DNA of 59,611 nt. Source: an uncultured Candidatus Woesearchaeota archaeon (GTDB lineage: Archaea > Nanobdellota > Nanobdellia > Woesearchaeales > GW2011-AR9). Under the pieces are notes generated by a model that saw nothing but the letters and a program-made list of their open reading frames with translations, did not search any database and was not told the origin of the DNA. The stretch lies in assembly GCA_902529885.1 (NCBI GenBank), contig CABZYC010000002.1, forward strand, positions 1-59,611, written 5' to 3'. The position numbers were made by a program, and so were the translations under genes. Position 1 is the stretch's first letter. Each line of letters begins with the position of its first letter. Positions 21,455 through 59,611 of the stretch are shown in pieces.

Positions 21455-21473
21455 TTATTAAAACAAAGTAAAA

Positions 21474-21548: not shown

Positions 21549-21574
21549 GTAAAAATAATGATAAAAAAAAAGAA

Positions 21575-41745: not shown

Positions 41746-41754
41746 TCATACACC

Positions 41755-42654: not shown

Positions 42655-42655
42655 A

Positions 42656-42727
42656 TTAATTCCTATCATCAAACTGAGCCATCTGCTTATCATGGTCAGT
42701 GCCACCCATTTCACCTGGGACATAATC
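42656..42727 (-). repeat. 72-nt direct repeat copy 2 (3' end of paralogue B)
   Basis: 69 of 72 nt are identical to 41755-41826. It encodes ..PGEMGGTDHDKQMAQFDDRN plus the stop. Confidence 0.9.
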
Positions 42728-43459
42728 ATGCTCTGTTGACTGCGATGTTTCATCAAACAAATTTTCTCCATCTGTCCGTTTCTGAAACTGGTACACGTAC
42801 ACTGTTGAATCATCTTGGTCATAACTGATATAAACTGTTCTTCTCCTGGCTTGTATTTGGTTACTAATTGCAGCACCCTTAGAATTTTCATCTAATTCAA
42901 CATCGTACACCTCATCATTATCTGTTACTAGCTCAGCTAATCCCCTCTCAATCAGCCATCCATTTCTCAGATCATAAATATCTTTATCACCGTACACTGC
43001 AGAAAAACTTAATGGGAAACCAATATTATTGTAACATTTAGCTTTATCTTCACTTAAAGTTGTGTAAAGGCCACTTGTACTTACCTCAAAATTTTTCATA
43101 TAACACAAACAATTTTTATCACAAACTGATGGTACTTCAACCTCAATTTGACCAATATATTGATTAAGATAGTCAACCCCATCAAAGGAATTATATGAAT
43201 AAATTAAGTTCTGCTTACCTTCAAAATAAACAATAGCGCTAGGGTTATCTAAAATGACAATATGAGCATGTTCACGTTCATAATCCCCTGAATAAGAATC
43301 TTGTAGCACGTCATGAAAATCATCAAAACCAAAAAAACTTTCATCATGAAGACTGTAACTTAACAATATACCCATGGTTACAACAAATAAGGTTAATAAT
43401 ACGTCCCCTAAATGTGCAGTCATCCATTCTATCTGTGCTCTTCTCAAAATTAATCCCAA
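42656..43459 (-). CDS. class III signal peptide (prepilin-like) protein, 267 aa, paralogue B (TTG start; alternative TTG at 43447 gives MRRAQ...)
   Basis: N-terminus ..LILRRA|QIEWMTAHLGDVLLTLFVVTMGILLSYS. The C-terminal 20 aa are identical to paralogue A. Confidence 0.6.
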   Translation of the reverse strand: MGLILRRAQIEWMTAHLGDVLLTLFVVTMGILLSYSLHDESFFGFDDFHDVLQDSYSGDYEREHAHIVILDNPSAIVYFEGKQNLIYSYNSFDGVDYLNQYIGQIEVEVPSVCDKNCLCYMKNFEVSTSGLYTTLSEDKAKCYNNIGFPLSFSAVYGDKDIYDLRNGWLIERGLAELVTDNDEVYDVELDENSKGAAISNQIQARRRTVYISYDQDDSTVYVYQFQKRTDGENLFDETSQSTEHDYVPGEMGGTDHDKQMAQFDDRN

Positions 43460-43465
43460 TCACCA

Positions 43466-43711
43466 TTAATCGTCATCGTCATCATCACCAGATGACCTGT
43501 CGCATTTTGAAGTGTCACTAGTATCTGTGTCCATCTGATCAGGGATCCCATCACAATCTATATCTCTTGTAACTGCATCAAAACCTTGATTAAACCCATC
43601 TTTACCTTTACCTATGCTTCCAACTGAAAAGCCTATTAAAAGAAGTAAAATTATCACTGCTAACACCCCAAAGATGATTATCATCCATACTGCATCATTC
43701 CCTCGTTTCAT
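43466..43711 (-). CDS. class III signal peptide (prepilin-like) mini-protein, 81 aa, with acidic Asp-rich Ca-binding-like tail
   Basis: The internal ATG at 43711 forms ATGA with the upstream stop. N-terminus MKRG|NDAVWMIIIFGVLAVIILLLLIGF. Tail: DIDCDGIPDQMDTDTSDTSKCDRSSGDDDDDD. Confidence 0.6.
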   Translation of the reverse strand: MKRGNDAVWMIIIFGVLAVIILLLLIGFSVGSIGKGKDGFNQGFDAVTRDIDCDGIPDQMDTDTSDTSKCDRSSGDDDDDD

Positions 43712-44796
43712 GAAAATTTCTCCGCGTACGTTTCCACTTGACAACCCGCATTATTAGCACCGGTTAATGAATCCAATACAATATAACTATAATATCTCTG
43801 TGTCATCAAATCACCGTTATAAAATTCAGTTTTAGCGTCAACCTCAATATTATTCTCTATCTTACTCCCATAATACCAAACAGCAGCAAGCCCACCTACA
43901 ACCAAGAATGCACCTACTACACAGCCCACCCCCGTAGCACATGCACCTACACCCGCAGCTACAGTTGAACTACCAGCAGCGGCAGCTGCTGTGGTAGCGG
44001 CAGCAATTGTAGAATAAGTTACAGCTGCACCCACACCTATCGCACCCACACCAGCTAATAATTTAGCAGAATCCCATAAATATTCAGGTGGTTCGTAATG
44101 GTTCTTACTAAAATACAAAATTGCCATAACATCTTCATTACGTATTGGTTCTTGGATCATGAAAACAGTCTCACCACCAAACAACCCACCACCTTGCAGA
44201 TAATCAATATATTTTATCCCCATCCTAGGACTTTCTTCAGCTGAAATGAATTCGTGCATCTCCCATGCATTTATCATCATGTTTTGGCTTTCATTGTTAA
44301 CAAATTCACTCAAAGAAACAGTTGCACACAGAAAACAGTGTGGATCATCAGAATTCCACCCCAATACTTGGAACGCTTCATCCTTAACACTTGTGAAATA
44401 GTCGTCTTGACGTGCTTCGTTCATCATGTAACGACATTCAACCATCTTCTCTGCAATCATGTGCATAGCCTTCTCCTTCATCAAAAGGTCCGCACCATCT
44501 TTATCAAACGTTTTCTGTAGCCAGACCCAAATCCCTTTATCAGGATACAATATTGAATCCACTGTGTTACATAGGACAGGTGCCCAACTTACTTCTACAC
44601 AATTACTACCATCATCTGAACATTCAGATGTTGCTATCGAACTTGATAGTCTTGACTGTAAACTTGTACGGCATATAGAAACAGGGCTTCTATCTTCACC
44701 AAGTTCAAGTAAAGGAATTAAAATTGAAAGTACTGCGCCAATAGCAATTATTGTTAAAATCATTAAACCTAATGATTGCACTTGACCTCTTCTCAT
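43708..44796 (-). CDS. class III signal peptide (prepilin-like) protein, 362 aa, with C-terminal Gly/Ala-rich hydrophobic segment; paralogue of 44835-45827
   Basis: N-terminus MRRG|QVQSLGLMILTIIAIGAVLSILIPLL. The G/A/V-rich stretch is at residues about 246-310 (nt 43867-44061). Confidence 0.6.
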   Translation of the reverse strand: MRRGQVQSLGLMILTIIAIGAVLSILIPLLELGEDRSPVSICRTSLQSRLSSSIATSECSDDGSNCVEVSWAPVLCNTVDSILYPDKGIWVWLQKTFDKDGADLLMKEKAMHMIAEKMVECRYMMNEARQDDYFTSVKDEAFQVLGWNSDDPHCFLCATVSLSEFVNNESQNMMINAWEMHEFISAEESPRMGIKYIDYLQGGGLFGGETVFMIQEPIRNEDVMAILYFSKNHYEPPEYLWDSAKLLAGVGAIGVGAAVTYSTIAAATTAAAAAGSSTVAAGVGACATGVGCVVGAFLVVGGLAAVWYYGSKIENNIEVDAKTEFYNGDLMTQRYYSYIVLDSLTGANNAGCQVETYAEKFS

Positions 44797-44805
44797 GTAA
44801 TATAG

Positions 44806-44822
44806 ATGTTGTAATAAATAAA
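44806..44822 (-). promoter_or_regulatory. A/T-rich TATA-like element upstream of 43708-44796
   Basis: The minus strand reads gcctTTTTATTTATTacaacatctatattacATG. This lies in a 38-nt gap, one of the larger intergenic gaps in the array. Confidence 0.3.
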
Positions 44823-44834
44823 AAGGCTTTCGGT

Positions 44835-45827
44835 TTACTGCTCTTTACAACCAATATGTTGAACTGTTTCCATGTCATCTAGTATAAAATACCCATATGT
44901 CCTTGTATCAAGCATCCCCTCTGAACCATAGAAATATTCTGCTTTGATTTGAGAATTATAATTGATTCTGCCAGCAACTAGCCCTGTAGCAACAGATCCA
45001 CCTACAGCACCAACAACAACCGTAGTTATACCAACACAAGCAGGGGCGGTAGCTAAACAAACCAATCCACCGACTGCACCTATCGCAGCACCAGCCACAC
45101 CATAACTTAAACCAACTTCTGCCACTTCCATTATATCAACGGGGACACCCCCATCACTATTTCGACCCAAATAGCTGATCCCATATAACCCATCATTAAC
45201 TATATCTGTTGCAATCAGATATGCACCTTCGCCACCAAGGTTCCCACCCCCATTTAAGTAATCTGAATAAGTTATACCCTGAGATAATTCTTCATTGAGT
45301 AAGAATTGATGGAATTCTTGCGCAGTAATAGTATAATTCAATTCCTTGACTGCCACACTATAACAAGTAAAACATTTTGGTTTGTTTTCATCAAAACCGA
45401 ACAATTCCCAAAATTCGCTTCCTAAATTTGAAAAAACATCTTCATGCCGGTTATCTGTAAAAGTATATTTGCATGCTGCCAAAGACTCAGCAAATTTACG
45501 CATGACACTTTCTTTTTGACCTTCTTCTATTCTATCTTCAGTAAAAATTATACTTGAAAACCACGCATCTTGGTATATTGCAGAAGGAGTGAATTTTAGA
45601 TCTTGCTTTCTACAAGATAAACCTCCAAACGAAAACGTATTCTCTTCAGTAGTCTGCGCGGATGTTAACACCCTATTTTCTATTGAAGAACGACACATGT
45701 TCTCAATAGATTTATCGCTCATGTACCCAAAAGATTCCATCATAAAACCTAACATTGCAATCATGGAAAAACCAATCAAAAGTATGCCTGCTAAAATAAA
45801 CATTACGTTTGTTTGCGCTCTCATCAT
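44835..45827 (-). CDS. class III signal peptide (prepilin-like) protein, 330 aa, with C-terminal Gly/Ala-rich hydrophobic segment
   Basis: N-terminus MMRA|QTNVMFILAGILLIGFSMIAMLGF. The G/A/V-rich stretch is at residues about 236-286 (nt 44970-45122). ATGA overlap with the upstream gene. Confidence 0.6.
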   Translation of the reverse strand: MMRAQTNVMFILAGILLIGFSMIAMLGFMMESFGYMSDKSIENMCRSSIENRVLTSAQTTEENTFSFGGLSCRKQDLKFTPSAIYQDAWFSSIIFTEDRIEEGQKESVMRKFAESLAACKYTFTDNRHEDVFSNLGSEFWELFGFDENKPKCFTCYSVAVKELNYTITAQEFHQFLLNEELSQGITYSDYLNGGGNLGGEGAYLIATDIVNDGLYGISYLGRNSDGGVPVDIMEVAEVGLSYGVAGAAIGAVGGLVCLATAPACVGITTVVVGAVGGSVATGLVAGRINYNSQIKAEYFYGSEGMLDTRTYGYFILDDMETVQHIGCKEQ

Positions 45828-46840
45828 CCGTTACACGTAGGAATTATGCTATAATCCTCATTCCCAACAATACATTTATTCCAAGCACACCCTTCCCCAG
45901 GAGTCTTACCACTTGTATACCCTTTAGGTGTATGGCGGGGAAAATCATTAGTACCCACATATGAGCCAAAATCATCCTCAAACATTTCATCAATTGCATC
46001 AGGATGAAATCCACAATGATCATAGCTTTCTGCAGAAGTTGGACTATCATATGCAGGTATTATACAGACATATCCTTTTTTGGGACTATAAATCCAGTCA
46101 CCACTGCCAGTATCCCAAAAATCACCTAGTGCGCCCACTTCTAGTTTATAAGGTTCTTCCCCATCAAGTATACCGTCCACCACCATATAATCTTCATCCT
46201 TGTCGCTCCCTGAATTTAAAATATAAGTCCATTGATTAGTCTCATCATTATGCGTCCACCCTTTCCAATCTTGGTAAGTCATATCTTCACCTAGATCTAG
46301 TTGTTCCCAATACCAATTATGAAAGTTTTCTGCATATTCATCACCGTGACTATCAGTACCACCAACAGAACATAACACTAATCCCGGAATATTAAAAGTA
46401 TCTTTATGTTGCTGACCAATTAATGTTTGTATCCTCACCCCTGACTCAAAAGTAGTTGATGCCTCAGATTCAATAAACTTGATTGTTAATAATTCCTCAG
46501 TTAAACCAGACGGGTTTGGTAACCTATACATACAAGGTGTGTCATCACCATATCTGTATCCACCACTATATTCTCTATCCCTTACATGAGATAATGTTTT
46601 GTTTAAATCGTCTAAATACTTTCTTAGATCCCCAGATATTTTTGTGCTTGAAAGAGCTAAATTGGTGTATTGCCTTTGTGTTTCGGATAAAGTCTGATTC
46701 ACATTTCCTACAACATCCATGATACTATGTTCACCCTCACTCATAGTGTCACCAACAAAACCCTTTATTGTAAGGCCAGTTACACTACAAAAAATTAGTG
46801 ATACTAAAATTAACCAAAGTCCGGCGGCACCACGTCTCAT
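45824..46840 (-). CDS. class III signal peptide (prepilin-like) protein, 338 aa, Trp/Asp-rich
   Basis: N-terminus MRRG|AAGLWLILVSLIFCSVTGL. ATGA overlap with the upstream mini-ORF. Confidence 0.55.
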   Translation of the reverse strand: MRRGAAGLWLILVSLIFCSVTGLTIKGFVGDTMSEGEHSIMDVVGNVNQTLSETQRQYTNLALSSTKISGDLRKYLDDLNKTLSHVRDREYSGGYRYGDDTPCMYRLPNPSGLTEELLTIKFIESEASTTFESGVRIQTLIGQQHKDTFNIPGLVLCSVGGTDSHGDEYAENFHNWYWEQLDLGEDMTYQDWKGWTHNDETNQWTYILNSGSDKDEDYMVVDGILDGEEPYKLEVGALGDFWDTGSGDWIYSPKKGYVCIIPAYDSPTSAESYDHCGFHPDAIDEMFEDDFGSYVGTNDFPRHTPKGYTSGKTPGEGCAWNKCIVGNEDYSIIPTCNG

Positions 46841-46971
46841 CCAACAAGCGTCCTCTGGGTTAGATCACCCATCCCATTATGGAATTTATATAATAATCCT
46901 ACGCCTACAAAAACAAAAAATAATACTATTAAAAGAACCACAATGTACCAAAAAACTTCACCACGTTTCAT
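46837..46971 (-). CDS. 44-aa mini prepilin-like ORF (not in ORF track)
   Basis: Hand translation: MKRG|EVFWYIVVLLIVLFFVFVGVGLLYKFHNGMGDLTQRTLVG. The start overlaps the upstream stop (TAATG) and the stop overlaps the next start (ATGA). Confidence 0.5.
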   Translation of the reverse strand: MKRGEVFWYIVVLLIVLFFVFVGVGLLYKFHNGMGDLTQRTLVG

Positions 46972-47084
46972 TATATTATTGCTTCCTTTATTCGGTTCAA
47001 AAATAAAATACCAAAAACAATGATTGCAATTATCAATAATAAGTATGCAACCAATGTCATACCTGGCATTTCACCTTTCTTCAT
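46971..47084 (-). CDS. 37-aa mini prepilin-like ORF (not in ORF track)
   Basis: Hand translation: MKKG|EMPGMTLVAYLLLIIAIIVFGILFLNRIKEAII. TAATG overlaps at both ends. Confidence 0.5.
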   Translation of the reverse strand: MKKGEMPGMTLVAYLLLIIAIIVFGILFLNRIKEAII

Positions 47085-47335
47085 TAATTAGCCTCAATAC
47101 CTAAACAACATAACTGGCCCGTTCCACATTCAAAAGAGGATACTACCGATCCATTCAGAACTTTACATGCTTCTTTACTAGCTTTACATTCGCCCCCAGC
47201 AACTTCGCAACCACTAATACCTTGTTCCAAAACCGTTGTTTTACCTGTGAACATAAGTAGGAGGACCGCTAGGACCACTAAAGCTATCACCGCTCCAATA
47301 ATGATCCAAAAAACGTTTGCTTGTCCTTTTTCCAT
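47084..47335 (-). CDS. class III signal peptide (prepilin-like) protein, 83 aa, Cys-rich C-terminus
   Basis: N-terminus MEKG|QANVFWIIIGAVIALVVLAVLLLMF. C-terminus: CEVAGGECKASKEACKVLNGSVVSSFECGTGQLCC. Confidence 0.6.
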   Translation of the reverse strand: MEKGQANVFWIIIGAVIALVVLAVLLLMFTGKTTVLEQGISGCEVAGGECKASKEACKVLNGSVVSSFECGTGQLCCLGIEAN

Positions 47336-47343
47336 CTATCTAC

Positions 47344-47685
47344 CTAATCCCAATTACAACCGTAACTTTCACAGTTCGCTTCTGAATCTCTACCATCGTT
47401 ACATTCATCTGCACGATCGTCAATAAACTCTAACGCTTCCAACTGTTCACTGTCTTCACCGTCACCCCATAAATTGTAGAACTGTTGTTCATCTGCTAAA
47501 CCAGGATGACATTTCCCAAACATGATTGATAATGCTTGATACCGTGCACCTGCCTCTTTTGGTACTGTATCATCGAATGACCCTAACCTACCAATAAAAA
47601 TAGCAGTTAATACTACTAAAACAATTAATGCTAACGCCGCAATAATAATTACATTTAACGACATCCCTTGCGCTCTTTTTACCAT
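47344..47685 (-). CDS. class III signal peptide (prepilin-like) protein, 113 aa (start taken at MVKRAQG)
   Basis: N-terminus MVKRA|QGMSLNVIIIAALALIVLVVLTAIFI. The ORF-track start at 47721 adds 12 residues. Confidence 0.55.
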   Translation of the reverse strand: MVKRAQGMSLNVIIIAALALIVLVVLTAIFIGRLGSFDDTVPKEAGARYQALSIMFGKCHPGLADEQQFYNLWGDGEDSEQLEALEFIDDRADECNDGRDSEANCESYGCNWD

Positions 47686-47739
47686 AATTTCACCATCTAT
47701 TAATGTAAAAAATGGAAACAACGTATTTAAAATTTGTTG

Positions 47740-48249
47740 TTAATCACATATAATTAACATTGTTTGCGCTAATAAGTTATTACCTTCACCTAGATTTAGG
47801 CTAAACATTCCGCTACTATCATAATCCCTACTACGCATACAATCTTTACTTTTTATTTGGTAAAACAATTCTGGGTCACTACCCACACTTGTTTTGTACA
47901 CACGAAGTTCGTAATGTTTCCCCCATTGTAACACAGTCTCGTCCAACATTTTACTTGATTTATCTACAAACAACTCACATGCGTCTAGCTCACTATCACA
48001 AGTGTTACTGTCACCACCCGCCATTATCAAACAGTCTTCCAATATTTGTTCACCCATACTCATTGCCTTAGTCCTACACTCCACTTCAGTGTTAAGTATA
48101 GCGCTCATGGTACTGTAAGCTAACCCTTTACGTACAAACACACTCTTATCTGTCTCAGAATCAATTGCAAACTTTGCAAAAAATAAAAAGCCAATACTAA
48201 TCATTATCACAATTATCACCATCCCAATTATTTCTTGTTGACCCCTCAT
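47740..48249 (-). CDS. class III signal peptide (prepilin-like) protein, 169 aa
   Basis: N-terminus MRG|QQEIIGMVIIVIMISIGFLFF. ATGA overlap with the upstream gene. Confidence 0.6.
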   Translation of the reverse strand: MRGQQEIIGMVIIVIMISIGFLFFAKFAIDSETDKSVFVRKGLAYSTMSAILNTEVECRTKAMSMGEQILEDCLIMAGGDSNTCDSELDACELFVDKSSKMLDETVLQWGKHYELRVYKTSVGSDPELFYQIKSKDCMRSRDYDSSGMFSLNLGEGNNLLAQTMLIICD

Positions 48250-48815
48250 GAATATGCCTCCACATGAATATATCCATACCCAAACTCGCCGTACACAGTC
48301 TGGTTACTACTATTAAGCCCAAGGTTGTTCCGTAAGGTTATCACAAAAAATGTTGGTTCTTTATCTGCAGGTACTTTCTCACCATTCTCCAAAGTTACAG
48401 TTTTTACCTGTTCATACACAGTCCAATTACGTTTTTCAGGATAAATTTGGTGAACATAAATTCCGCTGTACCCAAACATGTCAAAATAATAGTCTTGTTT
48501 ATGACTATCAATAAACTGTTCAATACCTCTCAATTTTTGTATATCCATACAATTGTCTACTGATTCCGATTCACCGTTACTACAATATAACTCAGATAAA
48601 AATAAAGCAGTTAAACTAATATCTATTGCTTGCTGAGCAAGCATCTCTGTTTCTTGTTCTTGCAAACTGATTTGTTGATATTTAAAAAAAAATATTATAC
48701 CGAACACTACTAAAATGAAAAATATGAACATGGTCACTAAACTTTCCATCATTTGCATTTGAGCTTTAGTATACACGCGTGCACCCCGCTGCCGAAAGTT
48801 CTTGGTTAAGATCAT
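48246..48815 (-). CDS. probable class III signal peptide protein, about 189 aa (start uncertain)
   Basis: The ORF-track start at 48860 is TTG. ATG at 48815 gives MILTKNFRQRGARVYTKA|QMQMMESLVTMFIFFILVVFGIIFFF. ATG at 48758 would avoid the overlap with the upstream gene but loses the basic region. Confidence 0.45.
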   Translation of the reverse strand: MILTKNFRQRGARVYTKAQMQMMESLVTMFIFFILVVFGIIFFFKYQQISLQEQETEMLAQQAIDISLTALFLSELYCSNGESESVDNCMDIQKLRGIEQFIDSHKQDYYFDMFGYSGIYVHQIYPEKRNWTVYEQVKTVTLENGEKVPADKEPTFFVITLRNNLGLNSSNQTVYGEFGYGYIHVEAYS

Positions 48816-49869
48816 ATATTTTTGTTGCTTGGTCTCGTAAAGTGAATTGACCACACGCAAGATAATTAGTGGTACACTGTTGCGCAGCCAAACTTAATGT
48901 CCGATACATAGTAGAATCATCTTTCAAAATTGATAAACAATCTGCATATTCTTCTCTACTTTCATACGCGCCAACCATTAAGTCAACTTTATCTTGTAAC
49001 ACTTCGGACACTAATGACAACCGTTTAAACGCCTTCATCATGTTACACCTAAACGTTTCAGCGTTGCCAGCAAACAAAGCTGCGTAAGCAACTGCATCAC
49101 GTTCAGAACCCGTGCTTACTAAGGGTGTCCATTCACCTTCATTACCACCTTCAACGTACCAAGCATCCCCGCGTTTCACATAGTATAACACTGCGCCATC
49201 ATGAAAGCGTACGGCGCTCACTTGATCATTGTTTAGTACAGAAAGTTCTAATGGCACCGCTTCTTCGTGTTCTATAAAAGGTATCCCGGACTCTAACAAA
49301 ATGAGCCTGACGTGATACTCACCATTATATTCTACTTCCCCTACATTATCTATGAATTCAACGTTTAACCCATTCGTACTGTTCATAAGTTCAATGTAAA
49401 AATCGCTTGACCCATCACTAACAACATAATATTTAGTATTTTCACTCGTAACAAACAAAAAGTCCATCACTTTAAACGGTAATTTGTAAGGCATACTCCA
49501 TAAGATCATTTTGTTCGTCTTAACATTTAATGGGGCGACTACTACAGATAATGGACTTTCAATACTTGCAGAAGATCCACTAATACCATAATAACTAAAC
49601 ACATCATATATCCCGCCGGCTTCATCAAGCTCACAACGAAATTGAAACACTTCGTTCCTTACACCTGATGTGTCTAGAAAATTTTTAGTATTTTCTGCAA
49701 CCGTAGACCCAGTGAAAATATTTTCAAGGATGTTCATCACTTTATAATTCAAACGTTTCTCAGACATTTCTTTTTGCTGAGTTATTATCATTATAAAAAA
49801 AAGTAAAATGGCCGCACCAGCCACCATGACATAAATCCAATTAAATTGTACTGTTACCTGGCCTTTCAT
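48766..49869 (-). CDS. class III signal peptide (prepilin-like) protein, 367 aa
   Basis: N-terminus MKG|QVTVQFNWIYVMVAGAAILLFFIMII. ATGA overlap with the upstream gene. Confidence 0.6.
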   Translation of the reverse strand: MKGQVTVQFNWIYVMVAGAAILLFFIMIITQQKEMSEKRLNYKVMNILENIFTGSTVAENTKNFLDTSGVRNEVFQFRCELDEAGGIYDVFSYYGISGSSASIESPLSVVVAPLNVKTNKMILWSMPYKLPFKVMDFLFVTSENTKYYVVSDGSSDFYIELMNSTNGLNVEFIDNVGEVEYNGEYHVRLILLESGIPFIEHEEAVPLELSVLNNDQVSAVRFHDGAVLYYVKRGDAWYVEGGNEGEWTPLVSTGSERDAVAYAALFAGNAETFRCNMMKAFKRLSLVSEVLQDKVDLMVGAYESREEYADCLSILKDDSTMYRTLSLAAQQCTTNYLACGQFTLRDQATKIYDLNQELSAAGCTRVY

Positions 49870-50363
49870 TCGTATACCAATTGACTTAAATATGCTGCGT
49901 CACCACGACCTTCTAACCTCAAAGTAAATTTGCCATTCTCTAAAGGTAAACATAAATATCCATCGTCCATACGAAGTTTGTACGTTTTAATTGCTGCAGC
50001 TGCAGGTGGGTCCAAAAACACGTTTTGGTCAGCAGCGCCCCATGACCCAGCAGTTTCCCATGCGTCACAAGCTATCGCACTTTTAGCACATAATGACTCG
50101 TCATACGTTGCATCCATATCTACAAAACAAATTTCTGTGTATTTCACAGGTAAACTGAAATCTAATGTTCGCGCTGCACCATAATCACTGTAAATCTTCT
50201 TGACATTATTCTCAAGGTTAGTTTTAAACTGCATGAACTCCACCATTTCTCCCTTCTCCATCAAATCGTTCACCATGTTAACACCAAATATAAGTATAAA
50301 TGCAAAACTTATACCTGCAATCATGTAAATGAATACTTGTTGTACCGCCATCCCTCGTTTCAT
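49866..50363 (-). CDS. class III signal peptide (prepilin-like) protein, 165 aa
   Basis: N-terminus MKRG|MAVQQVFIYMIAGISFAFILIFGV. ATGA overlap with the giant gene's stop. Confidence 0.6.
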   Translation of the reverse strand: MKRGMAVQQVFIYMIAGISFAFILIFGVNMVNDLMEKGEMVEFMQFKTNLENNVKKIYSDYGAARTLDFSLPVKYTEICFVDMDATYDESLCAKSAIACDAWETAGSWGAADQNVFLDPPAAAAIKTYKLRMDDGYLCLPLENGKFTLRLEGRGDAAYLSQLVYE

Positions 50364-53300
50364 TTTGATAACTTCCTTAATTTTTTGAATACTTCGTTCG
50401 CATCTTTTGCGTTAACTTCATTCTTTTTATGTGCACTACTCAAATTCTCAAGTTTATCAAACAAATTTGTATCAACCTGTTTTTTAATTTCAGGTTTGTT
50501 TGCTTCAAAATGTTTTGTTACTTCCGCTACTTTCTTGTGCACTGGAAGATCTTCGTGCGCAGTCCGCATTAAGTGTTCAACACTTTTTTTAGCAGTGAAA
50601 GACGAAAATAATTTTGATCGAGAACTTTTTTTAGTACGCTTACTAAAGTTTTCTTCTAAGCTGCGTAGTCGGTCACCAACACTCACTTTCTTTTGTGTTA
50701 ATGGTTGAGCTTTTGACTGTGAAACATTCGGTTTCATAGATTTTGGATTGGCCATTTTATTTTGTGGGGAGACTTGCCTTGACTGAACCTGTTTGTTGTA
50801 CAAAGGTTTTGAACCAAACAGTGCTCTTCCTTGAGGCATCTGAGTATAAAAGTAGCTTAAGAATCCACTTGAACCACCCATCATCAATAAAGATAATAAT
50901 AATACAATTATTGCACCAAGATTATCGTTCGGTGAAGAAGATGATGATGAAGGGATATCCAATACTTCTGTTTCGACCACAGGTTCAGTGAATGTGTCAT
51001 CAATACAAGGGTCTTTACCTGCTTGGTACTCTTCCAGATTGTTTAAACCGTCACTATCAAAATCTTCGTCAGTATCAGACACACCGTTCATATCAGTATC
51101 TAAAGCCTCGTGGTCCAATTCACAGCCAGGTGCAGTACTAAGTTTTTCCCAGCTGTCTGGTAACCCGTCACCATCAGTATCAGTTGTATCAGATGTTTCT
51201 TGACGAGCACAACCAGTACTATCAACCTGTGCACCTGCACTTGTTTCAGTACAAATGTCACATTGGTCAGCTACACCATCACCGTCAACATCTTCAAACT
51301 CAATCTTCTGGTTACCGGTAACATTGTTCCCTTTAGTGTCAGAAGCAAAATAACATAACCATTGGTTCTGTTCTACAATTATGCCCGATTGTTTATCTTG
51401 GGTAGGGTCACAATCAGCAATAGAAGTACTAGTCCCATACAAAATATCGTCGCAGCCAGCGTCATCACTACATTCAAGGCTTATTACTGAGCCCATACAC
51501 TGTTGAGCTTGAGTCACAACTTGAATATCTGGGCCAAAAATGTCCATTGCACAATCTTCGCTGCTACCGTCACCAGCAACAAAACCGTCTGTATAAACAT
51601 ATTCCCCTACGTTACCTGCAGAATCAACAGCTAACACTTCAATGTAATATGGTGTCCCATTAACAAGAGTCACACCTTCAATGTCTGCAGTAAGATTTAA
51701 TGTTCCTGACGAAATTAAGATTGTATCAGTAGCATTTTCAAGTCCAAGGTACTCCCGTAACTGGCTTGAACCGGGACTGTTTCCTTGGTAAAGGTTATAC
51801 TCATAATGGCTTATGTTTGGTTCGTTAACAGTTACAGATAATGGGACAGTATGTAATCCACAACTTTCCTCACCATCATTCGTGCTTGTTATAGACGGAG
51901 GTGTTTGGTCAACATAAAATTCGATTGTATCATCATCATAGTTCTCTGATATTAAACAAGATACGATATAATGGTACGGATCATTACTCTCAACAAGGTC
52001 ACCAATGTATTTTGTGTGCACTGTGTTCCCTGAAACAGTGAAATCTTCACCGTCAACTTCACATAAAGCGTTCTTACTAGTTTGGACTTCTAACGTTACT
52101 TCTTTCCCATCAATTATGCCAGTTGGACTCATTGATTCAATGTAACCCACTACTGCATAATCAACAGAGAAATCTATTGTTTCTTGATTACTTACTAACC
52201 CCGCACCATTCTCACACTGTACCGCTAATGTGAAGTCAGCAGTAGCACCGTCAACATCAAAACTGTATTCACTAACGTGTGTTGTGTTCAAAATGTTGTC
52301 GTCATACCCTTCAAAACTATAACGCATATTTTCGTAATCGTAACCGTCATTAGTTACATCGTCAAACTTACAAACAGTTTTATCGTCTGTGGTAACAGTT
52401 AATTGTACCGTCCGCATGTCCGTCACTAATTCTGGTTCCACGTTAGTTGTAAGAATAATTGGTTTTGAAGGATCGTACTCCAAATTCATTTTTTGGGCAG
52501 GGCCAACTTCACCAAGCGGATCTTTACATTTTACATACAACGTTTTTTTACCACCATCTTCGTCATAAGCAGCTAACACGTCCCCAGGGAAATCTTCGTA
52601 CAAATAATAATTAGTTTTATCTTCGTACAAATCAAACTTTTTATATTCTGGTTGAGAATCAAAATCAAACTCAGGATTGAAATCGTAGGTACAAGCTTCA
52701 GTGTTAAGTTTACTCATTATGACCCAATCAAAAACAGGGTCAGAACTTACCCCGTACTGTTCACCACCATAATAATAAAGTTCAGGTAAAACCATGTTTA
52801 TACCAAATCCTTCAACAATAATCTCTCCACATTGTACGTCTACAAGGTTTTCCACTGTATCAGTTGAATAATAACACATCCTCGTTGTGTTTGTAATAGT
52901 GACAGTACCTGAATACACTTCATATTTTTCGTCACTCCGACTCTCGCACCCTTCACCAAAACAGTAAAACGTCTCTGCACAATCAAAACCTTCTGCAGAA
53001 CATTCAAAGTCTATATTCACTGATTCAATCCAGTATAATTCCCATTCATCCCCAACCGGTAATTCTTCACGGTCACCCTCCGTCAAAATTGCTTGCGTGT
53101 CAGGCGCAGTAAAGTCTACTACGAAATCAAAATAATCTTCCATTACTTCATCTGTATAACTCTCAACACATACAGCTTTCAAAAAGCCAGCATAGTCACC
53201 CTCATAAAAATTAGGTATGCTACTTGTACTATGATTCTTATTTTCGTCATCACTCGTATAAAACTCAGCCAATTTTGTCCATGCAACACCGTCATTAGTC

Positions 53301-56300
53301 TCATAGAGTTCACAACTTGCACCCACTGCAGTCGATATTTGAAACACAATGTCTGTCTCGTGCACTGCACCGCCAAATTCAGGGTATACAAAAGAGATAT
53401 CTTGTTCTAAATCGAACACTATTGTGTCTGACACATTGTTAATGTTACCATGGTCGTCAGTACACGAAGCAGTCAAATTATAAATTACGCCTGTCAACGA
53501 TGTGAAATAGTGTTCTTTATCCTCATCACGAGAGAATGATACTGTCTGAGTGTCACCTTCAGGCAACTTCTGTTCTAAAATAAAGTCACACTCAGCAGGT
53601 TCAGAAGGTTCTGTTAAATATACAGTTAACTCACTAATATCTGCGTCCGTATCACTATAATAATTCAATACAAAATCTGGGTTTTGTGTATCAACAAAAA
53701 CGTAAGTTGTTTGTAAATCTTCACGATTATAATATTTGTCTTCTGCTAAATAATATAATGTGTATGTGTCACCAGCCTCTATCACAGACTGTAAATATGT
53801 GCTATTAACCAAATTAATTTCTGCAGACTCAGAATTGATTATCCCAGAGTATTCATAATAATCAAAATTGTCTTCAGTACAACCACTAGATTGTGATGAG
53901 GTTAAACAGTAGTATAAGCCGGTCACCGGACTTATATCGTCTACAGAAGACAAGTTTATTGAAGGAAAACTGTTGCTTACAACTGCAAAACTTCCTGTGT
54001 TAATCTCAGTTATTGGCCCCTCATTATCTATCTTACACGTTTCATATTCTCCTGCAGAAAATTCGTCACAATCATTATAAGAATCGTAGTTCCCATCTTT
54101 ATAACATTCACCGTGCGTTTCGTTCGCTGCGTACCAATAACATGTTCCCCAACTACACTTGTCATTACTATTGAAAATGTCCATGTCAATACTAGACACA
54201 GGTACACCCCCAATACATTCAAGTTCGCTTGTATACTCATAACAATTTGCGTCTTGTGAAGGTGAATCACCACAATCGTTGCAAACACTATTATTAGTAT
54301 CACTAAAACACGATCCTAATTGATCACACACATCAGGAGTACAATACATGTTCTCAAATAATTGGCTGTCGGGACCACACAAATAACATTGGTCATCTTC
54401 AACATAATCTTGTGGTGCGCAATATCCTGTACCAAACTCTTCAGTGGTAGGATACAATACAGGGGAGTCATAATACGTATTATCACTCTGGTTCACCCAA
54501 AGGCAACCTTGCCCTAAACAATTATCAATCTCGCAAGAGTCTTGGGACCTATAATCAAAACAAGTTTGTACTTCATTACAATCAATACAATCGTCCACAA
54601 TTGTGTCACTATAATCATAATAACAAAAGTTCAAGTATCCAGTCTCGTTATCATAATCCCCATAACATGTTGACTCTTCATAATATAAACCAAACGGTGT
54701 AGCTAACATTGAGTCAACATTACACATTCCTGCATCTTTACAAATTGCGTTCGTTTCACCAATAATGGTACAATAATAATCTGTTGAATCTGTGTCAAGC
54801 TCAGAACAATCGTTACTTAACACCACATAATTTTCATCGTCACACGCATAGATCAATTTTCGTTCATTATCATCCGTAGTACTATCGTCAATACCACAAA
54901 AAAATTGTGACTCTTGAATATTATCACATTCCTTATCACCCGTTAACACAGTGATAGAAATTTGTTCTGTACTAATCCTTGTTTGAGGTGCACCAGCATC
55001 ATCCGCAGGACCGTCTGTATAGATTGCTTCCAATGCATAAGTGTACGAAGTTTCCCATTCAACATCATAATCAATATAGGTTCCAATGTACGGGCTTATA
55101 ACTCCTAACTTCACACCGTCTTTATACAAATTATACCCGTCAACTTCAGGACAAGGTTTTTCCCAAGACAAAAAAACTGCTTCCATTCCACGTTCTACTG
55201 ATGATTCAAAGACTTCAACAGGTTTTGTAGCGTTAGGTTGCCCATAACTACATTCGCCAATGTAACGTGAAAGGATAATGTCATAATCAAGTTCAGTAAT
55301 ACCTTCATCAACATTCAATGTTAAATCGTCAACTGAATAATCCTCAAATATAGCACTTATATTGTATGCTCCTGGTTCAAGATAGATTTCAAATGTACCG
55401 TCTGGGTACTCACTACTTTCTTTAAAAATATCGTTCACATAAATTTTAGCGCCGAATACAGGGTCAAGCACACTTAAATCACCCATTGTGTCCAAATAAG
55501 TTACGCCTTTCACTCCTTGAAACTCAATCTCTTCTAGAATAAAAGTGTCATAAAAATCCGAGTCTAATGAAAGGTCATATTCAAGGACAGTGTGATAACT
55601 TTTACTCAACGTTAAAACGTGTTCGCCAGTGTTCACATCAGTAAATTCGAAAAACCCGTCAGTATCAGTACTAACCTGGACGGTATCATTACCTTCTAAT
55701 GTTACTGCAACTTGCGATAATGGTTCACCATCAATGTCAGTTATTAAACCACTCACTGTATGTTCACCTAAGCTCCGGACAACAACATATTCTAATTCTA
55801 ATGTTTCGCCATCAAGAACGGTTATAGTATCACGGTAAGTACTATACTCTTCAGTTGTGATGGTTAATGTATAAGTGTTAGGTAATACATCATTAAACTC
55901 AAAATAGCCTGTGTCTGTAACCTCGCTACCATCATTAAGCATAATAGTAAATTCTACATCTTCACCAGACTCATTTTGGACAGTACCAGTTATTGTGGAA
56001 GTCTCAACTTCATACCCACAAATGTCTACACTACAGTATGCTGCATCAACATTAATGGTATAACTCATGCTTGATTCCTCAAGACCTTGCTGTTCTGTAC
56101 GTGACACACAATCGTTCCTAAAATCTACTAATGAACAAAAATCGCCAGTCCGACAACAACCAGGTGTACACCATTGTTCATACATATCATCTGTAACTTC
56201 AACGCCGCCTTCATACTCACACAATAAATAAGATGTATAATCGCAAGATACACTACATAATACTTCTTCACATTCATCAATTGTATCACAACTTATACCT

Positions 56301-56494
56301 GGACTAAAATAAAGGTCTAGATCGTCACAACCGTTCGTATCACAATCAGCTTGCGCATCACTTTCTAAAACGTTATCTGTACACAATAAACTTGTATCAG
56401 ATAAAGGGTAAGTATAACAACCTTCAAGCTCAGCTTGCACTAAAGGAATTAAACAAAACAGTATACACATTCCTATTAATAGTCTCACGTACAC
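50360..56494 (-). CDS. giant (2044 aa) Cys-rich multi-domain surface protein with C-terminal TM anchor and Lys-rich cytoplasmic tail
   Basis: GTG start with a Sec-type signal MYVRLLIGMCILFCLIPLVQA|ELEGCY. Domains are described in the findings. TM LGAIIVLLLSLLMMGGSSGFLSYFY (about nt 50846-50923), then a 161-aa K-rich tail. It is a single uninterrupted ORF with only short antisense shadows. Confidence 0.85.
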   Translation of the reverse strand: MYVRLLIGMCILFCLIPLVQAELEGCYTYPLSDTSLLCTDNVLESDAQADCDTNGCDDLDLYFSPGISCDTIDECEEVLCSVSCDYTSYLLCEYEGGVEVTDDMYEQWCTPGCCRTGDFCSLVDFRNDCVSRTEQQGLEESSMSYTINVDAAYCSVDICGYEVETSTITGTVQNESGEDVEFTIMLNDGSEVTDTGYFEFNDVLPNTYTLTITTEEYSTYRDTITVLDGETLELEYVVVRSLGEHTVSGLITDIDGEPLSQVAVTLEGNDTVQVSTDTDGFFEFTDVNTGEHVLTLSKSYHTVLEYDLSLDSDFYDTFILEEIEFQGVKGVTYLDTMGDLSVLDPVFGAKIYVNDIFKESSEYPDGTFEIYLEPGAYNISAIFEDYSVDDLTLNVDEGITELDYDIILSRYIGECSYGQPNATKPVEVFESSVERGMEAVFLSWEKPCPEVDGYNLYKDGVKLGVISPYIGTYIDYDVEWETSYTYALEAIYTDGPADDAGAPQTRISTEQISITVLTGDKECDNIQESQFFCGIDDSTTDDNERKLIYACDDENYVVLSNDCSELDTDSTDYYCTIIGETNAICKDAGMCNVDSMLATPFGLYYEESTCYGDYDNETGYLNFCYYDYSDTIVDDCIDCNEVQTCFDYRSQDSCEIDNCLGQGCLWVNQSDNTYYDSPVLYPTTEEFGTGYCAPQDYVEDDQCYLCGPDSQLFENMYCTPDVCDQLGSCFSDTNNSVCNDCGDSPSQDANCYEYTSELECIGGVPVSSIDMDIFNSNDKCSWGTCYWYAANETHGECYKDGNYDSYNDCDEFSAGEYETCKIDNEGPITEINTGSFAVVSNSFPSINLSSVDDISPVTGLYYCLTSSQSSGCTEDNFDYYEYSGIINSESAEINLVNSTYLQSVIEAGDTYTLYYLAEDKYYNREDLQTTYVFVDTQNPDFVLNYYSDTDADISELTVYLTEPSEPAECDFILEQKLPEGDTQTVSFSRDEDKEHYFTSLTGVIYNLTASCTDDHGNINNVSDTIVFDLEQDISFVYPEFGGAVHETDIVFQISTAVGASCELYETNDGVAWTKLAEFYTSDDENKNHSTSSIPNFYEGDYAGFLKAVCVESYTDEVMEDYFDFVVDFTAPDTQAILTEGDREELPVGDEWELYWIESVNIDFECSAEGFDCAETFYCFGEGCESRSDEKYEVYSGTVTITNTTRMCYYSTDTVENLVDVQCGEIIVEGFGINMVLPELYYYGGEQYGVSSDPVFDWVIMSKLNTEACTYDFNPEFDFDSQPEYKKFDLYEDKTNYYLYEDFPGDVLAAYDEDGGKKTLYVKCKDPLGEVGPAQKMNLEYDPSKPIILTTNVEPELVTDMRTVQLTVTTDDKTVCKFDDVTNDGYDYENMRYSFEGYDDNILNTTHVSEYSFDVDGATADFTLAVQCENGAGLVSNQETIDFSVDYAVVGYIESMSPTGIIDGKEVTLEVQTSKNALCEVDGEDFTVSGNTVHTKYIGDLVESNDPYHYIVSCLISENYDDDTIEFYVDQTPPSITSTNDGEESCGLHTVPLSVTVNEPNISHYEYNLYQGNSPGSSQLREYLGLENATDTILISSGTLNLTADIEGVTLVNGTPYYIEVLAVDSAGNVGEYVYTDGFVAGDGSSEDCAMDIFGPDIQVVTQAQQCMGSVISLECSDDAGCDDILYGTSTSIADCDPTQDKQSGIIVEQNQWLCYFASDTKGNNVTGNQKIEFEDVDGDGVADQCDICTETSAGAQVDSTGCARQETSDTTDTDGDGLPDSWEKLSTAPGCELDHEALDTDMNGVSDTDEDFDSDGLNNLEEYQAGKDPCIDDTFTEPVVETEVLDIPSSSSSSPNDNLGAIIVLLLSLLMMGGSSGFLSYFYTQMPQGRALFGSKPLYNKQVQSRQVSPQNKMANPKSMKPNVSQSKAQPLTQKKVSVGDRLRSLEENFSKRTKKSSRSKLFSSFTAKKSVEHLMRTAHEDLPVHKKVAEVTKHFEANKPEIKKQVDTNLFDKLENLSSAHKKNEVNAKDANEVFKKLRKLSK

Positions 56495-56522: not shown

Positions 56523-57446
56523 TTAGTTCCGTTTACGCCGCAATATTGCACGTAACTCTTCTGTTCGACGGATACGTTCAATTGCATTTAACTGGTCTCG
56601 CGTCTTAATCTGTGGTTTAGGTGGACGATGACCTGCCCGTGCAATTGTTGGTTTAAGAGGTTTAGCTAAAGGTTGTGATGGGCGAACATAGCTTCTTCGC
56701 TTTTTAGGTTGTGGTGCCCGATATTTTTTAGGGTTAACTTTCATCGTTACTGCTTTTGAATTGTACACACCTTTTGGTTGTTGTGACCCTTTCAATGCCA
56801 GATATAAAAAAAGTAGTAATGCGCCTAACGCGACAGGAACGTAAGGAAAAGTTACAGGGTCACCTTCAATACTATTAAGTTTGGTTATTGTATTGTTACT
56901 TACATTACTTTCTTCAGAAATGCTTGAGTTCACAATATAATTGATTAAAGGGTCACCTGTAGCCACGTAATCAATTTCGTCTTTCTGTACAATCTCATAA
57001 TCTTTTGCAGTGTTACAATCACATTCACCCTGACTATAAGAATATAATTCTGTACCTTCAGTTTGCGCTTGTATAATACAATCAAACTCTGTACTTAATT
57101 CTGTGCAAGTCTCTTCTGTTTGACAACAGCCAGTTTTACAACTATCTTTTGTAGCAATACCGTAATCGCACATTCCACGAACGTTGAGGGTACAAGTGTC
57201 TTTACAAACAACTAATTGACATTCATCTAATATTGTACAAGAATCACTGTATAAGTATACGTCATCTAACACTTTTCCTGTATACTCCGCTTCAGTTAAA
57301 GCTTCATTCAACGTTAATTCACTACAATAAGCCGCACTTTCTTTGTCAACGTAGCATCCAAGGCCGCTAACTAGCGGAACCACAAACACCATCAATACAA
57401 ACACCGTCAAGGGTACCTTTACCATCCACATCACACCAGTTTCCAT
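56523..57446 (-). CDS. 307-aa Cys-rich type I membrane protein sharing the giant protein's N-terminal module
   Basis: Signal MVKVPLTVFVLMVFVVPLVSG|LGCY (alternative ATGs at 57431 and 57425). Cys module at residues about 30-145, TM at about 200-220, and a Pro/Lys/Arg-rich tail. Confidence 0.7.
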   Translation of the reverse strand: METGVMWMVKVPLTVFVLMVFVVPLVSGLGCYVDKESAAYCSELTLNEALTEAEYTGKVLDDVYLYSDSCTILDECQLVVCKDTCTLNVRGMCDYGIATKDSCKTGCCQTEETCTELSTEFDCIIQAQTEGTELYSYSQGECDCNTAKDYEIVQKDEIDYVATGDPLINYIVNSSISEESNVSNNTITKLNSIEGDPVTFPYVPVALGALLLFLYLALKGSQQPKGVYNSKAVTMKVNPKKYRAPQPKKRRSYVRPSQPLAKPLKPTIARAGHRPPKPQIKTRDQLNAIERIRRTEELRAILRRKRN

Positions 57447-59601
57447 TTTTACATTCGTTCACAAAGATCCCTACCTCAGACAAAGTGCCGACTTCAGCAT
57501 TTTGTAACACTGAATACCACGGTTGACTATGACTAAACAATTCTTTGTCTGCTGAGATGACAGGATTTTCTATTGCTTGGTCACAACCATACGTTCCCCC
57601 ACATAAATATTTCGTGCCTTCACTATCATATTGGATACTAAATTGTTCTTGTCCAGCACACACGCCTGGCACACCACAATCTATGTCAGCACATAAAGGA
57701 ATATCTCTGTCTGAACGTTGATATTCAGTAGTCTTATCGGAACCACACACATTACCTCTTGACTGATCACAAAACGCTTTTTCTACTACTTGCACTTTAT
57801 TTTGACATAAAATGTCTGATTCATAACATACTGTACTAACATCAGCCAATGTATTCGTGTCTTGTATGCAACACGCAGTTGTAGTGTTGAACGGACTATT
57901 ATCACGTGTTTCATGCCCCCCTGAATCGTTCACATAAATTTCATGGTATGGGAAAGGAAAAGGATGCCTGGAAACTTCTTGATACGCACATTCAACAATG
58001 TCATAAGAAAGGCCTCTCGATAAATCTAATGATTCACCACACAATGACTCACTATAACCTAACTCTATTGAACCAATCTCACCAACCAAAGTGGGCCTAA
58101 AAATAGTATCTACAAAAAAATCATACATGTTTTCTTCATAATTACTAAGGTCATCACAATCAACTGATGTTTTGTAAGGTAGCACAAAACAAAAAGTGTC
58201 CGTACCCCAACTAAACGACCTAGTTTCAACCTCGTCATCACTAGTACTTTCATAACCTTCTGTATACAATACGTCCATAGAACTTAATGTACCATCATCA
58301 CTAGATACAGTAACTAAATAGGGTTGTTCAATGCTTAACATAGACGTCTCTTGACCCCTCACATCTGTTACAGTAACATCAAAATCGGTCGTCTCACCAA
58401 CCTTAATACGTATTTTTTGTGAGTCGTAACCATGATCATTAAATGAGGTTAAGATGAGCTCATAATCACCATCTTCAACACCTTCTATCTCTTGGTTGAT
58501 GAAGGGGTATTCGGAGAATGTGTCAGGTATATCTAAATTTAAACTATTACTATCATCCAATAATTCAAATGAAACATCATCTTGGTCCGGGTCGAACGAG
58601 GATGCATTAATAGTCAAATTTGTGTAAGACCTACTATCTGGCAAAATTAAATAGTCATAACCTAAACAAGCTGCTTGGCTAACATACTCTAACGCAGGAG
58701 GTCGGTTAGTAATGGCTACACGGTACACTAAGTTCTCATTTTCATCGCGGTGTATTTGGTTCGTTGAATATTCGTACACACTATAAGCACCTTGGTCACT
58801 TATTTCTAATGTGGAACCCAAAATTGAATAGGATGATACACCTTGCAATGTTTCTTCAGTCCAATTATAATGTACATCACGAGATTCGTAGTACAAGGGA
58901 TTCTTGATGGCATTATTAAAAAAACTGTACAAATTGCTAGGGTAAAAAAGATCAAAATCTTGTATGTCAAACATTTCTTCACCATCAAACATAAGAGATA
59001 ACGGGTACATTGCAGTAATTATAATACCACCACTTTCTATTTTTAAAGATAAAGTTAAATCGCCACTTTCAAACGCCCCAGCATAACCAGGTTGGGTTTC
59101 AACCTGTGTCTCAAAACAATCTAACACTTTCGTTTTTACATATTGTTCAAGGTCATCCTCAACATAAGATAACCGTAATTTTTGGCGTGCACCAAAATTG
59201 GCGGTGTCAGTGTTAACCCATTGACAATATGCCGGGGCGTTTGACGAACTTTCACAAGGATAACTTGCAGGCTCTTCATTCTCTTCATAAGTAATCCCTA
59301 AATATACTTGATCACCTTCAAACATTACACCATTAACACCATCTTGGAACTCTAAATCATTGTAAGGATAAAATAGTCGGCCACCTTTGCTTAATTCAAT
59401 TAATGCTTTGTCTAATTCGTCCAATAAACAATCTTGAATGAATAATCGTGCACCCTCTGAACGAAAAAGTTTACTATGTGTTTCATCAAGCGAAGTTTGC
59501 AATTGGTTATCCTGAACATTGTTTACTAATAACAACATAAAACCTACCCCTGCCATTAAAACTATCCCAAGTATAATGAAAACAGTTATCTGTCCTCTCA
59601 T
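57367..59601 (-). CDS. class III signal peptide (prepilin-like) large protein, 744 aa, Cys-rich C-terminal third
   Basis: N-terminus MRG|QITVFIILGIVLMAGVGFMLLLV. It is the first gene of the array seen in the window, with only 10 nt of upstream sequence available. Confidence 0.65.
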   Translation of the reverse strand: MRGQITVFIILGIVLMAGVGFMLLLVNNVQDNQLQTSLDETHSKLFRSEGARLFIQDCLLDELDKALIELSKGGRLFYPYNDLEFQDGVNGVMFEGDQVYLGITYEENEEPASYPCESSSNAPAYCQWVNTDTANFGARQKLRLSYVEDDLEQYVKTKVLDCFETQVETQPGYAGAFESGDLTLSLKIESGGIIITAMYPLSLMFDGEEMFDIQDFDLFYPSNLYSFFNNAIKNPLYYESRDVHYNWTEETLQGVSSYSILGSTLEISDQGAYSVYEYSTNQIHRDENENLVYRVAITNRPPALEYVSQAACLGYDYLILPDSRSYTNLTINASSFDPDQDDVSFELLDDSNSLNLDIPDTFSEYPFINQEIEGVEDGDYELILTSFNDHGYDSQKIRIKVGETTDFDVTVTDVRGQETSMLSIEQPYLVTVSSDDGTLSSMDVLYTEGYESTSDDEVETRSFSWGTDTFCFVLPYKTSVDCDDLSNYEENMYDFFVDTIFRPTLVGEIGSIELGYSESLCGESLDLSRGLSYDIVECAYQEVSRHPFPFPYHEIYVNDSGGHETRDNSPFNTTTACCIQDTNTLADVSTVCYESDILCQNKVQVVEKAFCDQSRGNVCGSDKTTEYQRSDRDIPLCADIDCGVPGVCAGQEQFSIQYDSEGTKYLCGGTYGCDQAIENPVISADKELFSHSQPWYSVLQNAEVGTLSEVGIFVNECKNGNWCDVDGKGTLDGVCIDGVCGSAS

Positions 59602-59611
59602 ACAATAAAAA

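Follow-up and report, generated by a model that had tools for sequence, protein, structure and literature searches.

Predicted short and giant surface proteins with a shared cysteine-rich head in a pilin-like operon of Woesearchaeota

The stretch of DNA analysed here, called the window throughout, is a 59,611-nucleotide (nt) contig (C2; GenBank CABZYC010000002.1, assembly GCA_902529885.1) of an uncultured marine Candidatus Woesearchaeota archaeon (GTDB lineage Archaea; Nanobdellota; Nanobdellia; Woesearchaeales; GW2011-AR9). It belongs to a 677-kb genome that is 95% complete and carries archaeal markers (RadA, an RPA-like OB-fold protein, topoisomerase VI A and B, aRF1 and PAN). From ~59.6 kb down to 39.6 kb of the window all genes lie on the minus strand, in the order large pilin-like gene, gene for a 307-amino acid (aa) protein (the short paralogue), gene for a 2044-aa protein (the giant paralogue) and ~16 further open reading frames (ORFs). 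Our analysis indicates that the short and giant proteins are ancient paralogues, predicted to be type-I membrane proteins with the N terminus outside and the C terminus inside the cell. The homologous parts that they share comprise a Sec-type signal peptide followed by a cysteine-rich domain (the head) with up to eight disulfides, one transmembrane (TM) helix, and a basic tail with amphipathic helices (Table 1).

Homologous heads and tails of the short and giant proteins

A first-pass annotation, made from the letters of the window, had described a common N-terminal cysteine-rich module in the two proteins. Its ORFs are correct, every motif that it quoted (GCY after the signal peptide, SC[DT][TI][IL]DECxxV[LV]Cxx[ST]Cx6[LM]C[ED]Y and CxxGCCxTx3Cx7DC) recurs exactly in the translations, and the modules proved to be homologous. 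BLASTP aligned the N termini of the short and giant proteins over 145 columns (E = 2e-9), and Smith–Waterman alignment of the mature modules only scored 137, against 45.8 ± 8.7 for composition-preserving shuffles (0 of 5000 reaching 137; Gumbel p ~2e-6) and 63.5 ± 13.7 when every cysteine was held fixed and the other residues were shuffled (again 0 of 5000; p ~1e-3). The profile comparison that the annotation had proposed, with hhalign on six short and three giant orthologue modules, gave 96.7% and E = 4.2e-10 over 110 columns, and all 14 cysteines of the short head fall on cysteines of the giant head in the joint alignment. The shared topology also stood up: Kyte–Doolittle scans find a signal-type helix and one C-terminal TM helix in both proteins (scan peaks at residues ~200–221 of the short protein and ~1858–1880 of the giant), and a basic tail follows the TM helix in each.

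The resemblance extends across the membrane. With the sequences cut after the TM helix, 76 short tails aligned with nine giant tails in hhalign at 97.7% (E = 2.1e-12, 107 columns, score 72), against a score of 25 for the reversed giant alignment and at most 17.6 for 30 column-shuffled versions. Motifs common to the tails are R-E-x-x-F-x-x-F/G, F-x-K-L-x-x-I and a terminal F/L-x-x-L-x-x-I/L-x-K-K-R-K helix. Within the window pair, the combination of C-terminal TM helix and homologous basic tail is strongly evident in the giant and is carried in the short protein by the terminal helix only: the short tail is a derived form, rich in Pro, Lys and Arg, in which the helix EELRAILRRKRN persists (compare ...EELRAILRKKK in the canonical short protein P0022). 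Because heads and cytoplasmic tails are both homologous, the short protein is, by architecture and ancestry, the giant minus its stalk, with a disordered linker of ~50 residues between head and TM helix where the giant has ~1700 residues. Giant orthologues occur across the whole family, are 1950–2200 aa long and are all collinear; the stalk of the window giant is collinear with those of distant orthologues at 24–42% identity, and Pfam finds PF13620 and PF13715 in it, with weak matches to PF18884 and PF02412.

We rejected the possibility that TM helix plus tail is a generic anchor of many proteins in this genome, where the tail profile matches the giant tail (E = 7.6e-36) and no other protein. 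Across the order, a TM-plus-tail profile matches the C termini of many large proteins (745–5683 aa) in other families, and many genomes of a 251-genome sample match in this part only; the weak matches may be compositional; examples are G304:C3:22990-23544 (in a 5683-aa frame), G158:C13:10358-10861 (5615 aa) and G202:C16:47676-48176 (3249 aa). These matches suggest that TM helix plus basic tail may be a common C-terminal anchor and tail module of Woesearchaeal surface proteins.

At the N terminus of the short protein, orthologue alignment favours M8 (nt 57425) over M1 as the start, so that M8 is probably the true start of the gene. The public gene call (289 aa) starts at M19, within the signal peptide, and therefore has a truncated signal (57392-57446, minus strand). 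Neither window protein shows a class III signal ([KR]-G/A followed by a hydrophobic helix of ~20 residues): both have Sec-type signals without a K/R-G motif, ending in ...VSGL/GCY (short) and ...VQA/ELEGCY (giant). Most giant orthologues start differently, with ..K-[KR]-R-G and then ~20 hydrophobic residues, resembling the class III (prepilin) signals that adjacent pilin-like genes encode (P0034, P0041, P0061, P0068, P0079 and P0106; L022 11095-17382, L024 5019-11138 and L026 6203-12478); the motif is absent from the window giant and its close relatives. If prepilin peptidase does cut these signals, such giants would retain an N-terminal pilin-type helix directly before the head.

Table 1. Predicted features of the short and giant genes and their neighbours (positions in the window)
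Feature	Position	Strand	Description
Short paralogue gene	56523..57446	-	307 aa from first ATG; signal peptide, Cys-rich head, linker, TM helix, basic tail
Signal peptide, short	57363..57446	-	Residues 1-28, ...VPLVSGL before GCY; Kyte–Doolittle, orthologue alignment, AlphaFold2 (AF2) helix 3-26
Cys-rich head, short	57009..57362	-	Residues 29-146; 14 Cys, without the canonical C3-C4 pair
Linker, short	56850..57008	-	Residues 147-199; acidic, poorly conserved; predicted local distance difference test (pLDDT) < 60, columns vary among orthologues
TM helix, short	56784..56849	-	Residues ~200-221; Kyte–Doolittle; AF2 helix 202-222
Basic cytoplasmic tail, short	56526..56783	-	Residues 222-307; Pro/Lys/Arg-rich; ends in invariant helix LNAIERIRRTEELRAILRRKRN; AF2 helix 283-306
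Giant paralogue gene	50360..56494	-	2044 aa, GTG start
Cys-rich head, giant	56000..56431	-	Residues 22-165, 16 Cys
Stalk, giant	50930..55999	-	Residues 166-1855; two CarboxypepD_reg domains, more Cys-rich and beta-rich regions, weak TSP3-like Ca-site motifs near the membrane
TM helix, giant	50849..50929	-	Residues ~1856-1882; Kyte–Doolittle
Basic cytoplasmic tail, giant	50363..50848	-	Residues 1883-2044; ends ...EVFKKLRKLSK; homologous to short-paralogue tails
Upstream large pilin-like gene	57367..59610	-	Class III-type N terminus (MRGQ and hydrophobic helix), Cys-rich C terminus; leaves the window
Downstream run	39556..50363	-	~16 small or medium co-directional ORFs, nearly all with M[KR][KR]G/A then ~20 hydrophobic residues (pilin-like)

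The head domain, its distribution and its loss

The head is an extracellular domain of ~125–140 residues, directly after the signal peptide, with 16 canonical cysteines spaced as C-x7-11-C-x11-12-C-x2-7-C-x7-12-C-x4-8-C-x4-C-x3-C-x7-9-C-x8-18-C-x3-5-CC-x5-13-C-x8-11-C-x18-30-C-x1-4-C. Both window proteins conform to this pattern, the giant with 16 of 16 cysteines and the short protein with all except C3 and C4. Because C3 and C4 vanish together in at least four lineages (the window's short lineage and at least three others), the pattern indicates that they form a disulfide, and probably a dispensable one; the short head of the window is a derived 14-cysteine form of the canonical 16-cysteine domain. 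The residues conserved between short and giant heads are limited to the cysteines, GC[FY], the GCC glycine, two other glycines and two alanines, with no catalytic-looking motif among them.

When 1.84 billion representative proteins (clusters at 50% identity) were searched with a profile built from 12 heads, 109 clusters were retrieved. True members are ~300–440 aa or ~2000–2200 aa long, or fragments of such proteins; the head directly follows the signal peptide in every true match, and each full-length member has a single C-terminal TM helix. Two non-archaeal matches (P0017 and P0117) were discarded as false positives, being bacterial immunoglobulin (Ig)-repeat proteins with many weak repeat matches and two cysteines only. 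Profile searching of genome contigs with the 12-sequence head alignment found no relative, and a further protein search with a 78-sequence alignment returned mostly low-complexity candidates and added one member. In public databases, family members are called ‘hypothetical protein’ or, after the CarboxypepD_reg domain, ‘carboxypeptidase regulatory-like domain-containing protein’, and we found no description in the literature of the head or of the short/giant pairing.

Comparison with known domains supported, for each library covered, the apparent novelty that the first-pass annotation had noted in the module. Pfam gave no significant match for the 12 heads or for 78 full-length short proteins; the only weak match, to EGF_Tme5 in two of the 12 heads (E = 0.013), is below any cut-off, and hmmscan does not place the head in the EGF family, whose domains have six cysteines within ~30–40 residues. 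Nor is the head a granulin (PF00396): there is no Pfam match, and it has a single CC doublet (C11–C12) against four in the twelve-cysteine motif of granulin. NCBIfam and PDB sequence profiles yielded zero matches on the head. AF2 structure prediction from the 12-sequence head alignment was unusable (pLDDT 45) and was replaced by one from the 78 full-length short proteins, which reached pLDDT > 90 over residues ~30–150 of the short protein and gave a mixed fold with short hairpins and two helices. In Foldseek searches this model had no counterpart at E <= 0.001 among solved structures (PDB, best E = 1.3) or predicted viral structures (BFVD, best E = 0.96). Together, these sequence profiles and the predicted structure point to a new domain family, and provisionally to a new fold, in which two sub-domains, C1–C6 and C7–C16, appear to be present. 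The databases thereby gain a hitherto unannotated domain family of ~100 clusters at 50% identity.

Other cysteine-rich regions of the window were considered as possible relatives of the head and rejected: neither the cysteine-rich C terminus of the upstream pilin-like protein nor the internal cysteine-rich region of the giant (residues 521–800) matched it, and the genome holds just two head copies.

A maximum-likelihood tree built from 95 heads groups the ten giant heads in a single clade, with a Shimodaira–Hasegawa-like approximate likelihood ratio test (SH-aLRT) support of 100, and places the two heads of the window far apart. The clade also includes a 285-aa entry without a TM helix, probably a fragment of a giant. 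Because the giant heads form one clade, the duplication is older than the diversification of the family, with no sign of gene conversion in the tree, which led us to reject both concerted evolution and recent duplication of the heads. The ‘duplicated’ head of the first-pass annotation is a real duplicated module. Its proposal that the pair are ‘long and short isoforms of the same anchor’ holds for the anchor, the cytoplasmic tails being homologous, but not for the isoforms, because the two proteins are products of separate, anciently diverged paralogous genes.

Outside the window's own genus, the narrow head profile was positive in 30 of 36 genera of its GTDB family; in the 24 other families of the order it was positive in none. 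With a broader full-length profile, matches appeared in 108 of the 114 genomes of the family; counted by high-quality genomes this is 65 of 67, and counted by genera 56 of 58. In a 251-genome sample of the order, the head occurred outside the family, among the matches listed, in four of ~247 genomes, from three families, in proteins of 378, 1921, 2481 and 3346 aa.

The head is always kept by the giant and has been lost wholly or partly from the short protein in several genera. In two genomes (G124 and G125) the short gene keeps its signal peptide and only cysteines 1–6, followed by linker, TM helix and tail; in five others (G134, G135, G071, G127 and G017) it has neither signal peptide nor cysteines and begins directly at the TM helix and tail. 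This natural reduction series points to the indispensable parts of the short paralogue: C1–C6 appears to form a sub-domain that can stand by itself, whereas the TM helix with the tail is the conserved core, so that the head is an accessory on the short paralogue. All of these reduced short genes are flanked by the large pilin-like gene on one side and the giant gene on the other (L114 609-1469, L115 170-1009, L117 399-1010, L119 247-828, L118 866-1399, L116 345-788 and L026 12555-13052).

Operon setting

Across the family, the short gene is normally immediately upstream of the giant gene, and the short-then-giant pair belongs to the core of a pilin-like operon throughout the family. The five orthologues of the window's short protein, at 56–62% identity, all come from marine metagenome contigs and have the same neighbours (pilin-like, short, giant). 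In the window, the 3' end of the upstream large pilin-like gene overlaps the 5' end of the short gene. At the loci compared (window; L003-L009; L114-L119) the large pilin-like gene is always upstream of the short gene, with a frame overlap of ~50–80 nt, and its product has a conserved cysteine-rich C-terminal domain (...C.GT.GC... / ...CD.[DN].[DN]G..DG.C..G.C; window 57367-59610 and the same loci). These analyses define a compact, family-wide gene set in which the large pilin-like gene comes first, the short and giant genes follow, and more pilin-like genes complete the series.

No Pfam match was found for the ~16 pilin-like ORFs downstream of the giant, the first of which are syntenic in three other genomes (G026, G009 and G017). 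The genome encodes a single type IV pilus (T4P)-type ATPase and a single prepilin peptidase, both on other contigs. Within the downstream run, an 83-aa pilin-like ORF (47084-47335, minus strand) has a cysteine-rich C-terminal half that just misses the Pfam cut-off for carboxypeptidase inhibitor I68 (24.6 bits, cut-off 25; E = 3.3e-5). The ORFs at 41755-42891 (378 aa) and 42656-43459 (267 aa) on the minus strand overlap or adjoin each other and are close paralogues; because both end in the same ~21 residues ([IV]PGEMGGTDHDKQMAQFDDRN), they suggest a tandem duplication within the pilin-like operon. Elsewhere in the window, genes for tRNA-Cys(GCA) and tRNA-Arg(TCT) adjoin each other at 21347-21549 (minus strand), just downstream of the topoisomerase VI genes.

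Interpretation and comparison with known systems

The explanation that we favour, with a probability of roughly 0.6, is that the short and giant proteins form a paralogous surface pair built on a common head, TM helix and tail, that the head is a binding or docking tip, and that the pair makes an attachment apparatus together with the pilin-like proteins. Because only scaffold residues are shared between the heads and no catalytic-looking motif is among them, the head would be a non-enzymatic knob, and position and architecture suggest that it serves in binding or docking. The ‘ligand- or partner-binding knot’ of the first-pass annotation may describe it. Because of the CarboxypepD_reg domains and the collinear, length-conserved stalk, we read the giant as a tip carried on a stalk: its head would be placed at the membrane-distal end, as in fibrillar adhesins, and would be the working copy. 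The short protein would be a stalk-less partner, with its conserved job in the TM helix and tail, which probably pair with those of the giant to form a single membrane complex; short proteins that still have the head would display the same binding surface close to the membrane. Pair and pilin-like proteins together would make up a cell-surface attachment apparatus of these small-genome archaea.

Several points weigh against this interpretation. What speaks for binding is position and architecture, and the pairing of the paralogues through TM helices and tails is speculative. Among distant giants the head is 35–39% identical and the stalk regions 24–46%, so that the head varies no more than the stalk does, and the length of the giant is tightly conserved; this rate and fixed length are untypical of fast-evolving adhesins, and a structural, envelope or surface layer (S-layer)-like role would fit them equally well. 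The tail of the window's short protein is divergent and goes undetected by the tail profile at E <= 0.01, with only its last helix clearly retained. Finally, Foldseek is weak on small disulfide-rich folds, which makes the newness of the fold, judged against PDB and BFVD, provisional.

The most serious rival, albeit an unlikely one, takes the locus for an S-layer-like or envelope scaffold, with the giant as the main surface-layer protein, the short protein as its membrane-proximal partner and the heads as lattice or oligomerisation contacts. SlaA and SlaB of Sulfolobales offer a loose parallel. Such a role would suit the single, near-universal giant per genome with its strongly conserved length and collinearity, as well as a head that evolves at the rate of the stalk. 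A C-terminal TM anchor with many conserved cysteines recalls the ‘S-layer-like’ proteins of archaeal T4P loci (PMC4858521), and the giant P0034 has a weak NCBIfam match to an anammox S-layer glycoprotein over its CarboxypepD_reg region (E = 3.4e-7, far below the cut-off). Yet no S-layer family was matched above threshold, heads on a ~50-residue linker and on a ~1700-residue stalk are hard to place in one lattice plane, the short head has been lost in several genera that retain the gene, and a long conserved cytoplasmic tail is unusual for an S-layer protein.

Less probable still is that the head docks a co-encoded pilin-like protein, for example the cysteine-rich C-terminal domain of the upstream one, and so couples the pair to a short pilus or pseudopilus. 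The order large pilin-like, short, giant is kept in many genera, with frames overlapping or nearly abutting, the whole locus is pilin-like, and the single T4P-type ATPase and prepilin peptidase of the genome would fit such a fibre; but the pair occurs without the upstream large pilin-like gene in one genome (G026), and a head at the giant's far tip is poorly placed to dock to the base of a fibre. As for a chance or compositional resemblance between two secreted proteins of similar cysteine content, cysteine richness does inflate alignment scores, as the rise of the shuffle mean shows, but this explanation is refuted by a score above all 5000 shuffles of each kind, the hhalign result, the alignment of the 14 cysteines, the recurrence of the same 16-cysteine spacing in ~100 clusters, and the tails and synteny that the pair also has in common.

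The paralogous-pair interpretation can be taken further, to a specific picture that we regard as improbable: the head would be the host- or partner-recognition domain of a hitherto unrecognised Woesearchaeal contact organelle, an eight-disulfide knob of new fold held at two heights, with coupled TM helices and tails and pilin-like proteins dedicated to it. First contact would fall to the long tether, the short copy would draw the membranes together, and the basic tails would relay the contact inward. To our knowledge, the mode by which DPANN archaea such as Woesearchaeota attach to their partners has not been established, and we know of no Woesearchaeal surface apparatus that has been characterised. 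The pair is a candidate for the attachment gear of these symbiont-like cells, and the disulfide-rich domain, well bounded and predicted to lie at the exposed end of the giant, offers a concrete target for localisation, structural and binding-partner work.

Among known modules, those of the EGF-like and granulin type serve as binding scaffolds. The head resembles them in being small, extracellular and disulfide-stabilised with little regular secondary structure; unlike them, it has 16 cysteines in ~130 residues, a spacing of its own, a single CC doublet and no Foldseek neighbour. At the level of whole proteins, the giant is similar in architecture to the fibrillar adhesins of bacteria, which combine a stalk of repeated beta-sandwich domains with an adhesive tip domain and a cell anchor (Monzon et al. 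2022, PMC9210967). The giant likewise has a distal N-terminal globular head, a long CarboxypepD_reg/Ig-like beta-sandwich stalk and a C-terminal anchor, the short paralogue having no stalk, and no known adhesive domain was matched in the head by Pfam profiles or Foldseek. It differs from fibrillar adhesins in its anchor (a TM helix and long conserved cytoplasmic tail rather than LPXTG or a beta-barrel), in a non-repetitive stalk of constant length across genera, in the stalk-less paralogue next door and in belonging to an archaeon.

A second likeness is to the C-terminally TM-anchored, cysteine-containing ‘S-layer-like’ proteins encoded in archaeal T4P loci, such as arCOG05471 of Thermoproteales (Makarova et al. 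2016, PMC4858521). By their described features, these resemble the window pair in having a signal peptide, one TM helix at the C terminus, conserved cysteines presumed to be paired in disulfides and a gene located within a T4P or pilin cluster; the lineage differs (DPANN versus Thermoproteales), and a long/short pair, a defined 16-cysteine head and a conserved tail are undescribed for arCOG05471. For the T4P ‘dark matter’ loci of DPANN, Makarova, Wolf and Koonin (2019, PMC6393860) note unannotated signal-peptide proteins, which they take to be diverse pilins, beside ‘specific surface proteins’ and components of T4P. Their account describes neither the cysteine-rich head nor the paralogy of short and giant proteins nor the tail common to both. 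Anchored surface proteins in archaeal pilus-type loci are thus known; the domain family and the arrangement of long and short paralogues are new.

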